From Escherichia coli (GTDB lineage: Bacteria > Pseudomonadota > Gammaproteobacteria > Enterobacterales > Enterobacteriaceae), in assembly GCF_024502345.1 (NCBI RefSeq), contig NZ_JALDNN010000001.1: DNA of 64,000 nt, one strand, 5' to 3'. Position numbers and translations under genes: made by a program. The notes under the pieces are model-generated. The model worked only from the letters and a program-made list of their open reading frames with translations. It was not told the DNA's origin and ran no database searches. Below, one piece after another: positions 7,735 through 47,720 of the stretch; the stretch's first letter is position 1, and each line of letters opens with the position of its first letter.

Positions 7735-8985
7735 TTACATATTTTTGATGATCGCATCACCAAACTCTGAACATTTCAGCAGTTTAGCGCCTTCCATCAG
7801 ACGTTCGAAGTCATAGGTTACGGTCTTCGCATTGATTGCGCCTTCCATACCTTTAACAATCAGGTCTGCGGCTTCGGTCCAACCCATGTGGCGTAACATC
7901 ATCTCAGCAGAGAGAATAATAGAACCTGGGTTAACTTTGTCCTGACCGGCATATTTCGGCGCAGTACCGTGGGTGGCTTCAAACAGGGCGCATTCGTCAC
8001 CGATGTTTGCACCAGGGGCGATACCGATACCGCCAACCTGCGCTGCCAGGGCGTCAGAAATGTAGTCACCGTTCAGGTTCATACAGGCGATAACATCATA
8101 TTCAGCCGGACGCAGCAGGATCTGTTGCAGGAATGCATCAGCAATCACGTCTTTAATGACGATCTCTTTGCCGGTATTCGGGTTTTTAACTTTCAGCCAC
8201 GGGCCGCCGTCGATCAGTTCACCGCCAAATTCTTCACGCGCCAGCTGGTAGCCCCAGTCTTTAAACGCGCCTTCGGTGAACTTCATGATGTTGCCTTTGT
8301 GCACCAGGGTCACAGAGTCACGATCGTTAGCAATTGCGTATTCGATCGCTGCACGAACCAGACGTTTGGTGCCTTCTTCAGAACACGGCTTAATACCGAT
8401 ACCGCAATGTTCCGGGAAGCGAATTTTCTTCACGCCCATCTCTTCACGCAGGAATTTAATCACTTTCTCGGCGTCGGCAGAGTCAGCTTTCCATTCGATA
8501 CCCGCATAAATGTCTTCCGAGTTTTCACGGAAGATAACCATATCGGTCAGTTCAGGGTGTTTAACCGGGCTTGGAGTGCCCTGATAGTAACGTACCGGAC
8601 GCAGGCAGATGTAGAGATCCAGTTCCTGGCGCAGGGCAACGTTCAGAGAGCGAATACCGCCACCAACCGGAGTGGTCAGCGGGCCTTTAATGGCAACGCG
8701 ATATTCACGAATCAGATCAAGGGTTTCAGCAGGCAGCCAGACATCCTGACCATAAACCTGTGTGGATTTTTCACCGGTGTAAATTTCCATCCAGGAGATT
8801 TTACGCTCGCCTTTATAGGCTTTCTCGACTGCAGCGTCGACCACTTTCAGCATGGCTGGGGTTACATCTACACCGATTCCATCACCTTCAATGTAAGGGA
8901 TAATCGGATTTTCAGGAACGTTGAGTTTGCCGTTTTGCAGGGTGATCTTCTTGCCTTGTGCCGGAACAACTACTTTACTTTCCAT
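7735..8985 (-). CDS. icd: Isocitrate dehydrogenase (NADP)
   Basis: 416-aa [41 protein letters not shown]...; no prophage is attached to its 3' end. Confidence 0.97.
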
Positions 8986-34894: not shown

Positions 34895-35857
34895 GTGATG
34901 ATCAAAACGCGTTTTTCTCGCTGGCTAACGTTTTTTACGTTCGCCGCTGCCGTGGCGCTGGCGCTACCGGCAAAAGCCAACACCTGGCCGCTGCCGCCAG
35001 CGAGCAGTCGTCTGGTTGGCGAAAACAAATTTCATGTGGTGGAAAATGACGGTGGTTCTCTGGAAGCCATCGCCAAAAAATATAACGTCGGCTTTCTCGC
35101 TCTGTTACAGGCTAACCCCGGCGTTGATCCTTACGTACCGCGCGCGGGCAGCGTGTTAACGATCCCGTTGCAAACCCTACTTCCAGACGCGCCGCGCGAA
35201 GGCATTGTGATCAACATTGCGGAGCTGCGTCTCTATTACTACCCGCCGGGTAAAAATTCGGTAACCGTGTATCCAATAGGTATTGGTCAGTTAGGTGGTG
35301 ACACGCTGACACCGACAATGGTGACCACCGTTTCAGACAAACGTGCAAACCCAACCTGGACGCCAACGGCAAACATCCGCGCCCGTTATAAAGCACAGGG
35401 AATTGAGTTGCCTGCGGTAGTGCCGGCTGGACCGGATAACCCAATGGGCCATCATGCGATTCGTCTGGCGGCCTATGGCGGCGTTTATTTGCTTCACGGT
35501 ACGAACGCCGATTTCGGCATTGGCATGCGGGTAAGTTCTGGCTGTATTCGTCTGCGGGATGACGATATCAAAACACTCTTTAGCCAGGTCACCCCAGGCA
35601 CCAAAGTGAATATCATCAACACTCCGATAAAAGTCTCTGCCGAACCAAACGGTGCGCGTCTGGTTGAAGTACATCAGCCGCTGTCAGAGAAGATTGATGA
35701 CGATCCGCAGCTGCTGCCAATTACGCTGAATAGCGCAATGCAATCATTTAAAGATGCAGCACAAACTGACGCTGAAGTGATGCAACATGTGATGGATGTC
35801 CGTTCCGGGATGCCGGTGGATGTCCGCCGTCATCAAGTGAGCCCACAAACTCTGTAA
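34895..35857 (+). CDS. ldtC: L,D-transpeptidase LdtC (YcfS)
   Basis: Signal peptide, LysM-like region and YkuD catalytic motif (HGTNADFGIGMRVSSGCIRL); start taken at GTG 34895, ATG alternative at 34898. Confidence 0.9.
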   Translation: MMIKTRFSRWLTFFTFAAAVALALPAKANTWPLPPASSRLVGENKFHVVENDGGSLEAIAKKYNVGFLALLQANPGVDPYVPRAGSVLTIPLQTLLPDAPREGIVINIAELRLYYYPPGKNSVTVYPIGIGQLGGDTLTPTMVTTVSDKRANPTWTPTANIRARYKAQGIELPAVVPAGPDNPMGHHAIRLAAYGGVYLLHGTNADFGIGMRVSSGCIRLRDDDIKTLFSQVTPGTKVNIINTPIKVSAEPNGARLVEVHQPLSEKIDDDPQLLPITLNSAMQSFKDAAQTDAEVMQHVMDVRSGMPVDVRRHQVSPQTL

Positions 35858-35875
35858 ATCCTGGATAAAAAAAAT

Positions 35876-35900
35876 CCCCGCGACACGGCATGTCGCGGGG
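35876..35900. terminator. Bidirectional intrinsic terminator between ldtC and bhsA
   Basis: ccccgcgaca-cggca-tgtcgcgggg flanked by A-runs and T-runs on both sides. Confidence 0.8.
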
Positions 35901-35939
35901 AAAAAATCAGCAGTAGCAGGCATTAATGAGGGTTAATGC

Positions 35940-36197
35940 TTATTTATAAATTACTGCTGTTCCATGGAGGGTATTCGGACCGGTTACAGAAGTAATACGG
36001 AAAGATTTTGCGCCCATCTCATCCGCTTTTTGCGCCAGCTGCTCTTCCAGCGATCCCAGATTTGTCCCCGCGTTAGCACTGATTGTACCGACTTTTTGTT
36101 GGCCTTCTGGCGTTGACTGAACTTCGACAGCCGCAAAGCTGGCAAATGACATGGAGCTTAAAATCGCCGCAGCGATGAGGGTTTTTACGTTTTTCAT
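35940..36197 (-). CDS. bhsA: Multiple stress resistance protein BhsA (YcfR/ComC)
   Basis: 85-aa ORF with signal peptide, YdgH/BhsA/McbA family. Confidence 0.9.
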   Translation of the reverse strand: MKNVKTLIAAAILSSMSFASFAAVEVQSTPEGQQKVGTISANAGTNLGSLEEQLAQKADEMGAKSFRITSVTGPNTLHGTAVIYK

Positions 36198-36265
36198 AAT
36201 AGTGGCCTTATGCAGATGAATGACGTCGCAAGCAATTACTTAACGATCGATAACTAAATGATAGA

Positions 36266-36281
36266 TGTGATCTTGATCACA
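36266..36281. promoter_or_regulatory. Perfect 16-bp palindrome TGTGATCTTGATCACA in the bhsA-comR intergenic region (CRP-like or ComR operator candidate)
   Basis: TGTGA-N6-TCACA matches the CRP core consensus; about 70 bp upstream of the bhsA start. Confidence 0.4.
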
Positions 36282-36437
36282 TACAAGATATTTTTTATAA
36301 CAATCATTAATTAATTTAAAAATCTTTAAATTTCATTTAAATAGAAAGCAATTATTTTTATGGGATCTGGACTGGTGAACGGAGGTGATTATTTTTATAA
36401 TAACCTTTCATTCACAGTCACCAGGTATAACGGCATC

Positions 36438-37070
36438 ATGGCAACTGACTCAACACAATGTGTAAAAAAAAGCCGTGGCCGTCCAAAAGTGTTCGACAGG
36501 GATGCCGCGCTTGATAAGGCCATGAAATTGTTCTGGCAACACGGTTATGAAGCGACTTCTCTTGCGGACCTCGTCGAAGCGACCGGAGCCAAAGCGCCCA
36601 CGCTATACGCGGAATTTACCAACAAAGAGGGGTTATTTCGTGCCGTTCTCGACCGCTATATCGATCGTTTTGCCGCTAAGCATGAAGCACAGCTGTTTTG
36701 TGAAGAGAAAAGCGTGGAGTCTGCGCTGGCTGACTATTTTGCTGCCATCGCCAACTGCTTTACCAGCAAAGACACCCCGGCAGGCTGCTTCATGATCAAC
36801 AACTGCACCACCCTCTCCCCAGATTCAGGAGATATCGCCAATACGTTGAAATCACGCCATGCGATGCAAGAGCGCACTTTGCAGCAGTTTTTATGTCAAC
36901 GACAAGCGCGCGGGGAAATCCCGACCCACTGTGACGTGACACATCTGGCAGAATTCCTTAATTGTATTATTCAGGGGATGTCGATCAGCGCACGCGAAGG
37001 TGCATCGCTGGAAAAACTAATGCAGATTGCCGGAACGACTTTGCGTTTATGGCCCGAACTGGTGAAATAA
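36438..37070 (+). CDS. comR: TetR-family repressor ComR (YcfQ)
   Basis: MATDSTQCVKKSRGRPKVFDRDAALDKAMKLFWQHGYEATSLADLV..., 210 aa, N-terminal HTH. Confidence 0.88.
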   Translation: MATDSTQCVKKSRGRPKVFDRDAALDKAMKLFWQHGYEATSLADLVEATGAKAPTLYAEFTNKEGLFRAVLDRYIDRFAAKHEAQLFCEEKSVESALADYFAAIANCFTSKDTPAGCFMINNCTTLSPDSGDIANTLKSRHAMQERTLQQFLCQRQARGEIPTHCDVTHLAEFLNCIIQGMSISAREGASLEKLMQIAGTTLRLWPELVK

Positions 37071-47546: not shown

Positions 47547-47720
47547 TTCAGTGCCAATTTGTTTGACGGCTATCACGTTTCAACTTCAGATCATTGGAGA
47601 AGTTGCACATTTTGACAAAACATATGTCACAATATTTCAAACGCGGTTATTCACCGCCCAATTTTCGGCGGTGAACTTTACTCGTTTTAGCCATTAATTA
47701 CGAGCTTTAAAAAAACTCAT

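Follow-up and report, generated by a model that had tools for sequence, protein, structure and literature searches.

The divergent genes bhsA and comR of Escherichia coli are separated by a region containing the 16-bp inverted repeat TGTGATCTTGATCACA. The question raised by this locus is whether the repeat is a binding site for CRP or the operator of ComR, the TetR-family repressor of bhsA encoded beside it; a preliminary description of the locus had left both possibilities standing. All positions herein refer to the analyzed window, that is, the whole stretch of DNA studied, 64 kb in length. The two genes and the 16-mer, with its allelic base, are located as follows.

35940..36197, minus strand: bhsA (ycfR/comC), encoding a DUF1471 outer-membrane stress protein (open reading frame; Pfam PF07338, E = 2.6e-20; K-12 annotation)
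36438..37070, plus strand: comR (ycfQ), divergent gene for the TetR-family repressor of bhsA (Pfam TetR_N and TetR_C_13; K-12 annotation)
36266..36281, no strand assigned: CRP-cAMP site TGTGATCTTGATCACA, with half-sites at 36266-36270 and 36277-36281 and the dyad between 36273 and 36274
36274, no strand assigned: base that differs between alleles, in the centre that is not contacted; T in the window and G in K-12 and ETEC

The identities of both genes, the TetR family of ComR, and the divergent layout were correctly recognized in the preliminary description, as judged by Pfam domains and K-12 annotation.

Symmetry and position of the 16-mer

The sequence TGTGATCTTGATCACA was found only once in the 64-kb window, and no matches were found in 100 shuffles. 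It agrees with the pattern TGTGA-N6-TCACA with 0 mismatches, exactly as described earlier, and a pattern search found no other perfect match within the 64 kb. When up to one mismatch was allowed, 2 matches were found in the window versus 2.0 expected; thus, only the perfect match stands out. The element had also been called a perfect 16-bp palindrome, and this wording is wrong. Bases 8 and 9 are T/T and not self-complementary, so that the symmetry is broken in the centre and only 14 of the 16 positions are symmetric. According to an inverted-repeat search, the real symmetry is formed by two 8-nt arms, ATGTGATC (36265-36272) and GATCACAT (36275-36282), around a 2-nt TT. The original observation is therefore partly confirmed, being real apart from the word "perfect". 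The 16-mer is located 69-84 nt from the ATG of bhsA, in line with the earlier estimate of about 70 bp, and 157-172 nt from the ATG of comR. The intergenic DNA is AT-rich, as previously noted, with 28% G+C over positions 36200-36399.

Two further features were observed around these genes. The K-12 small RNA BhsB corresponds to positions 35868-35967 on the minus strand and overlaps the 3' end of bhsA together with its terminator (hairpin 35901..35875). Rfam contains no family for BhsB, and the scan of positions 35800-36500 gave only sub-threshold matches, driven by the bhsA terminator. Additionally, the program-called open reading frame of comR begins with an ATG at 36360 and encodes 236 aa, and the annotated start at 36438 gives 210 aa. 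Upstream of approximately 36420 the cross-genus conservation collapses, and the putative comR -10 element lies inside the 36360-36437 extension; both facts support the start at 36438.

Evidence for CRP binding

For scoring of CRP sites, a symmetric weight matrix was built from the other 106 16-mers of the ChIP-seq set of ETEC H10407. With this matrix, TGTGATCTTGATCACA scored 20.8 bits, which is higher than all 106 training sites (maximum 20.0, median 12.9) and higher than the best match in each of 200 shuffles of the 64-kb window (maximum 19.29). The second-best match in the window was the known CRP site of ptsG, TTTGACGGCTATCACG (47562-47577, 12.05 bits), which served as a positive control; its sequence is the same as that of the ptsG ChIP-seq site of ETEC H10407.

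Occupancy of the orthologous site by CRP was previously detected by ChIP-seq in ETEC H10407 (Haycocks 2015, PMC4287617), where the ycfQ/bhsA peak lies 4-fold above the threshold and contains the site TGTGATCTGGATCACA. In an ungapped alignment, this site is the K-12 allele of the window 16-mer. In a full-text literature search for the K-12 16-mer, the ETEC ChIP-seq paper was the only match. Another study, based on EcoCyc 22 and RegulonDB 9.4 (PMC6121374), grouped bhsA and comR in a feed-forward loop of the incoherent type 2: both comR and bhsA are repressed by CRP there, and bhsA by ComR as well. In the microarray data of the same study, obtained for K-12 cyaA tolC at 0-10 mM cAMP, the log2 changes of bhsA with rising cAMP were 0, -0.24, -0.42, -0.96, -1.09, -1.66, -1.74, and -1.94, so that expression was about 3.8-fold lower at 10 mM; this fall could be partly indirect. 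EMSA evidence for CRP upstream of ycfR is cited second-hand in a passage of a Klebsiella paper (PMC5521740). The supplements of Shimada 2014 contain nothing on bhsA or comR. Thus, the CRP site at bhsA/comR is already known, both as a ChIP-seq peak and as a database-listed regulatory interaction.

Relative to the catalogued site of K-12 and ETEC H10407 at comR(ycfQ)/bhsA(ycfR), the window element occupies the same locus and the same position (K-12 1168989-1169004 by coordinate transfer). Fifteen of the 16 bases and both half-sites are identical; the single difference is the ninth base, T instead of G, in the centre, which is not recognized by CRP. Of the 5426 complete genomes of E. coli, 5423 contain a match to the bhsA-comR intergenic region, with identities of 95-99.6%, and 3 of 256 bases differ between the window and K-12, the ninth base of the 16-mer among them. 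The T allele was found in 38 of these 5426 genomes, a set that includes many of O145; 5348 genomes have the G allele. The matrix scores of the two alleles differ by 0.46 bit (21.26 bits for the K-12 G allele, 20.80 for the window T allele), and both lie above every training site and every shuffle. Judging from these sequences, the rare central T appears to be a neutral variant that probably acts like the common G allele. The same substitution turns TGGATC into TTGATC (36273-36278, plus strand), 17 bp before TATAAC (36296-36301). TTGATC is a candidate -35 element of a comR-directed promoter overlapping the CRP site, and the T allele could strengthen such a promoter.

For the analysis of conservation, a ComR search of species-representative genomes gave 80 loci, and more loci of Klebsiella and lignolyticus were added through BhsA look-ups. 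The loci belong to Escherichia, Citrobacter, Enterobacter, Lelliottia, Salmonella arizonae, Leclercia, Kosakonia, Trabulsiella, Siccibacter, Buttiauxella, Cedecea, and other genera. Conservation was assessed in 74 orthologous regions with both genes, from about 20 genera of Enterobacteriaceae, and column counts were taken over 78 aligned sequences. A CRP-type site was found in all 74 regions that contain both comR and bhsA, 69-77 nt from the bhsA ATG in nearly every one of them. On the CRP matrix, none of the 74 orthologous sites falls below 13.6 bits. The counts of the window base in the 78 sequences are as follows.

Positions 1-7 of the 16-mer: T71, G78, T74, G78, A74, T76, C77
Positions 8-11: variable
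Positions 12-16: T75, C77, A77, C73, A47

Over the 74 regions, the half-sites (positions 1-7 and 12-15) contain on average 1.95 bits per position, compared with 0.62 in the centre (positions 8-11) and 1.22 across the intergenic region as a whole. The column conservation correlates with the CRP information profile with r = 0.71. Near-invariant half-sites around a free centre are the recognition pattern of CRP. The GATC..GATC extension, which gives the element its appearance of a 7+7 palindrome, is a peculiarity of Escherichia; Citrobacter, for example, has TGTGATCCAGGTCACA. Positions 6-7 (TC, 36271-36272) are invariant in 76-77 of the 78 sequences, and their mirror positions 10-11 (36275-36276) are free. 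This asymmetry is not explained by the symmetric recognition of CRP and may reflect a constraint from the promoter or from a second protein.

The choice between a CRP site and a ComR operator, left undecided in the preliminary description, is thus settled in favour of CRP with strong support: ChIP-seq of the orthologous 16-mer, the cAMP response, the matrix score, and the conservation all speak for CRP, and the ComR operator is opposed by the unconserved inner arms and by a better palindrome elsewhere in the region (see below). Of the two earlier proposals, that of CRP is right and that of ComR is unsupported. It is highly probable that the 16-mer is the CRP site of the bhsA-comR region, near-consensus in sequence and most likely placed so as to repress the bhsA promoter.

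CRP targets were also found among the DUF1471 paralogues of bhsA. The K-12 genes ybiJ, yahO, and yjfY have CRP ChIP-seq sites in ETEC, located 49, 108, and 131 nt from the ATG, respectively, with no common architecture. Control by CRP may be a trait of the DUF1471 family, though the promoter geometry is not common to its members. Because these positions differ, the paralogues provide no additional argument for the bhsA site.

A putative bhsA promoter around the site

The position of the 16-mer relative to the transcription signals of bhsA was predicted from the aligned regions. The following elements were assigned.

36281..36286, minus strand: putative bhsA -35 element TTGTAT; TTGACG in most other genera, at the equivalent of 36282-36287
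36258..36263, minus strand: putative bhsA -10 element TATCAT; T, A, T, A, and T each kept in at least 74 of the 78 sequences, position 4 free
36251, minus strand: putative bhsA start, an A preceded by T, equal to K-12 1169019, assigned from sequence alone; it places the CRP dyad at about -22.5

In the direction of bhsA, the order is the -35 element, the 16-mer, 1-2 nt, and the -10 element. The 16-mer would therefore form the spacer of a promoter of the TTGAC(G/C/T)-17/18-TATNAT type facing bhsA, which was found in 61 of the 74 regions and matches the sigma-70 consensus in 10 of 12 positions. In 60 of 74 regions the -35 element reads TTGACG; Escherichia has TTGTAT. The -10 element is TATCAT or TATGAT in 63. 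Nineteen regions have a spacer of 17 bp, and 55 have one of 18 bp. A promoter scan called TTGACG-17/18-TATNAT in three genera, namely Klebsiella, [E.] lignolyticus, and an Enterobacteriaceae MAG (L083, L086, and L025). In the window, the scan did not call the bhsA promoter around the 16-mer; the -35 element of Escherichia is weak (TTGTAT, 3/6). The seventh base after the -10 element is A, with T before it, in all twelve of the commonest post-hexamer contexts (69 of 74 regions), and from this base follow the predicted start at 36251 and the position of the CRP dyad at about -22.5. A conserved block CATTCATCTG (bhsA sense) was additionally observed at 36213-36222, in the predicted 5' UTR, about 15-25 nt before the start codon.

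CRP-cAMP bound at this position would fill nearly the whole spacer between the -35 and -10 elements, centred at about -22.5, and would compete with RNA polymerase, so that at high cAMP bhsA would be turned down through occlusion of its promoter. A protein in this place would be expected to keep RNA polymerase off the promoter, in agreement with the recorded repression and with the cAMP response. Known examples of repression by CRP at a core promoter are galP2, where the galP1 site at -41.5 is at -36.5 of P2, and cyaA P2. As at these promoters, a consensus-type CRP site in the bhsA region overlaps the -35 element and spacer of a sigma-70 promoter, and high cAMP is accompanied by less transcription. 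Unlike them, the bhsA site would fill the entire spacer of 17-18 bp, with a centre at -22.5 that depends on the predicted hexamers, and the bhsA promoter is also under the control of a local TetR-family repressor.

Other promoters were predicted for both genes from SELEX peaks by Shimada 2014. The bhsA promoter of that study, TTCACC-17-AATAAT (36379..36351), lies where conservation of the region is lowest and was not adopted. The promoter-scan calls in the window likewise fall in this least conserved stretch.

Four loci contain comR without bhsA: Enterobacter sp. ENT03 (L059), Enterobacter sp. Bisph1 (L062), Pseudescherichia vulneris (L073), and Escherichia sp. ESNIH1 (L074). In these loci (at about positions 1200-1500 of the locus sequences) comR directly follows ldtC, and bhsA, its promoter, the CRP site, and both of the palindromes M1 and M2 described below are missing. 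A promoter element located on the side of comR was retained.

36396..36401, plus strand: putative comR -10 element TATAAT, inside the conserved block TTTTTATAAT; it has the top conservation scores of the footprint and is kept where bhsA was lost

The block TTTTTATAAT is kept in all four comR-only loci, and the CRP-type site is absent from all four. Loss of the site together with bhsA, with retention of the comR -10 element, indicates that the site belongs to the bhsA promoter. Relative to this -10 element, the 16-mer is at about -134.5. No obvious local target of ComR was observed in the comR-only loci. A bhsA locus without comR was not found among the loci studied; those of Klebsiella pneumoniae, K. 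oxytoca, and [Enterobacter] lignolyticus all carry comR.

Candidate ComR operators and alternative readings

In a passage of a review, ComR is described as binding the comC promoter "60 bp upstream" of the gene, as being released by copper, and as having no autoregulation. The "60 bp upstream" position falls between the 16-mer and one of two other palindromes of the region, herein referred to as M1 and M2.

36241..36252, no strand assigned: M1, TAACGATCGATA (TATCGATCGTTA in the bhsA sense), at the putative bhsA start; candidate ComR operator
36298..36309, no strand assigned: M2, TAACAATCATTA, upstream of the bhsA -35 element and degenerate in Escherichia; second candidate ComR operator

It is M1 that lies on the other side of the reported position. 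In the bhsA sense, M1 reads TATCGATCGTTAA (36240-36252) and starts at the predicted -1/+1. The 9-mer CGATCGTTA within it is found unchanged in 70 of the 74 regions, and each column is kept in at least 74 of the 78 sequences. By phylogenetic footprinting, M1 is conserved better than the CRP 16-mer and is near-invariant over about 20 genera. The second palindrome takes the form TAACGATCGTTA in several other genera; the full 12-mer was found in L025 and its inner 10 bp, AACGATCGTT, in Klebsiella. In 65 of 74 regions, M2 has 0-2 mismatches to TAACGATCGTTA. A distance of 57 bp separates the centres of M1 and M2; the CRP dyad is located 27 bp from the former and 30 bp from the latter.

Two 12-bp palindromes that flank a promoter beside a TetR-family gene have the look of a TetR operator pair, and ComR was assigned to M1 (and M2) on this ground. 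ComR would most likely act through these TAACGATCGTTA palindromes and not through the CRP 16-mer. That ComR is reported not to regulate itself is consistent with the degenerate state of M2 in Escherichia. A well-known case of TetR-family operators in a divergent regulator/target intergenic region is the pair tetO1/tetO2 of Tn10. Like these operators, the 16-mer is a palindrome in the promoter of a gene divergent from a TetR-family regulator gene. Unlike them, it is conserved in its outer pentamers with a free centre, and the behaviour of paired TetR operators in the bhsA region belongs to TAACGATCGTTA, twice present, and not to the 16-mer.

Further copies of the palindrome were also sought. 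A third copy of the TAACGATCGTTA type downstream of the comR -10 element was rejected as a general feature, being found with at most 2 mismatches in only 3 of 74 regions. Other TAACGATCGTTA matches in the window (e.g., at 8318 and 44967) are located inside coding open reading frames and look like chance. Within the coding sequence of comR, TATCGATCGTTT at 36659-36670 matches TAACGATCGTTA with 2 mismatches and may be due to chance as well. A direct repeat was observed at 36287-36312 and 36387-36412, with 77% identity over 26 nt and a spacing of 100 nt. One copy belongs to the M2 region (TTTTTTATAACAATC) and the other to the -10 region of comR (TATTTTTATAATAAC), which points to an ancient duplication of a unit of promoter and operator.

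Several functions that a palindrome at this position might have were considered and rejected. An intrinsic terminator or structured RNA is not indicated, since the predicted hairpin has only -4.6 kcal/mol (z = -1.6); the Rfam scan of positions 35800-36500 showed no family over the 16-mer, and the promoter/terminator scan called no terminator at the site. An operator of the MerR type (e.g., for CueR), with a palindrome in an over-long spacer of 19-20 bp, does not agree with the spacer of 17-18 bp found here. The consensus of FNR is TTGAT-N4-ATCAA, with T, not G, first in each half-site core. The 16-mer reads GTGAT....ATCAC, and the G/C pair by which it differs from this consensus is present in 78 of 78 sequences; thus, an FNR site was rejected.

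The remaining alternatives concern the protein that contacts the 16-mer and the gene that it serves. If the 16-mer were the operator of ComR, with no real role for CRP, a TetR-family dimer would bind the 7+7 repeat TGTGATC/GATCACA and be released by copper. ComR does repress bhsA and interacts in vitro with the bhsA promoter region, its site is given in the review passage as "60 bp upstream", and a palindrome within the core promoter is in the typical place of a TetR-type operator; that the site tracks bhsA rather than comR is predicted by this reading, too. However, CRP occupies the G-centre allele in vivo in ETEC, and bhsA responds to cAMP. An operator should also keep its inner palindrome wherever the regulator is kept. 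In the 16-mer, positions 8-11 are unconstrained and most genera lack the GA of the right inner arm (e.g., TGTGATCCAGGTCACA in Citrobacter), although ComR retains 68-97% identity across the genera with unconserved inner arms; the conserved columns are exactly those of the CRP pattern, and the twice-present palindrome of M1/M2 is far better conserved through its centre. This reading has very little probability. A little more room, but still not much, is left for the CRP site to serve mainly comR, repressing or activating it, with bhsA affected indirectly via the level of ComR. The loop type derived from EcoCyc/RegulonDB implies that CRP represses comR too, TTGATC is located on the plus strand 17 bp before TATAAC and overlaps the site, and ycfQ was up on glucose limitation in one array study. 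Against this, the site near -134.5 from the best-conserved comR -10 element is beyond the usual positions of CRP activation; the loci with comR but without bhsA lost the site and kept the -10 element; TTGATC is specific to the rare allele and unconserved in other genera; and repression of comR alone by CRP should raise bhsA with cAMP, whereas bhsA falls.

Both regulators might instead contact or overlap on the 16-mer, either in competition or in cooperation, which would bring carbon and copper signals together on a shared element. The nearly midway position of the CRP site between the candidate ComR palindromes is compatible with this, as are the assignment of both regulators to one feed-forward loop by EcoCyc/RegulonDB (PMC6121374), the ambiguity of the "60 bp upstream" position in the review passage, and the invariance of positions 6-7, which could reflect a second protein. 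Nevertheless, M1 and M2 are each self-sufficient palindromes, and their 57-bp spacing corresponds to about 5.4 helical turns and does not place them on the same face of the helix; a shared element is considered quite unlikely. Somewhat less unlikely is an arrangement in which the 16-mer is the centre of a symmetric module of about 70 bp, with M1 and M2 as the true ComR operators and a CRP-induced bend that helps or hinders bridging by ComR. Catabolite and copper/stress signals would then be combined architecturally, in the manner of CytR-CRP, and the absence of ComR autoregulation in Escherichia would result from the loss there of M2 and of a similar element beyond the comR -10 hexamer on its downstream side. 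At the other extreme, the 16-mer could be a chance palindrome, or a DNA or RNA hairpin without a protein partner. AT-rich intergenic DNA is full of short inverted repeats, 15 pairs of which were found in 331 bp. The matrix score nonetheless exceeds that of every shuffle, the half-sites are kept over about 20 genera while the flanks vary, and the hairpin is weak; the ChIP-seq peak and the conservation effectively refute this possibility, and its probability is practically negligible. The reading preferred here is that of a CRP site in the bhsA promoter.

As an annotation, the 16-mer is real but ordinary, with little import beyond tidiness; it is among the strongest consensus CRP sites in E. coli. 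Only the comparative promoter picture is mildly new, in which CRP would likely bind in the spacer and the paired TAACGATCGTTA palindromes would likely be the operators of ComR. The location of the site as the spacer of a conserved promoter would provide a concrete reason for repression rather than activation of bhsA. In addition, the comparative data direct the search for the ComR operator to another palindrome, at a gene connected with stress and copper permeability and responsive to many kinds of insult.
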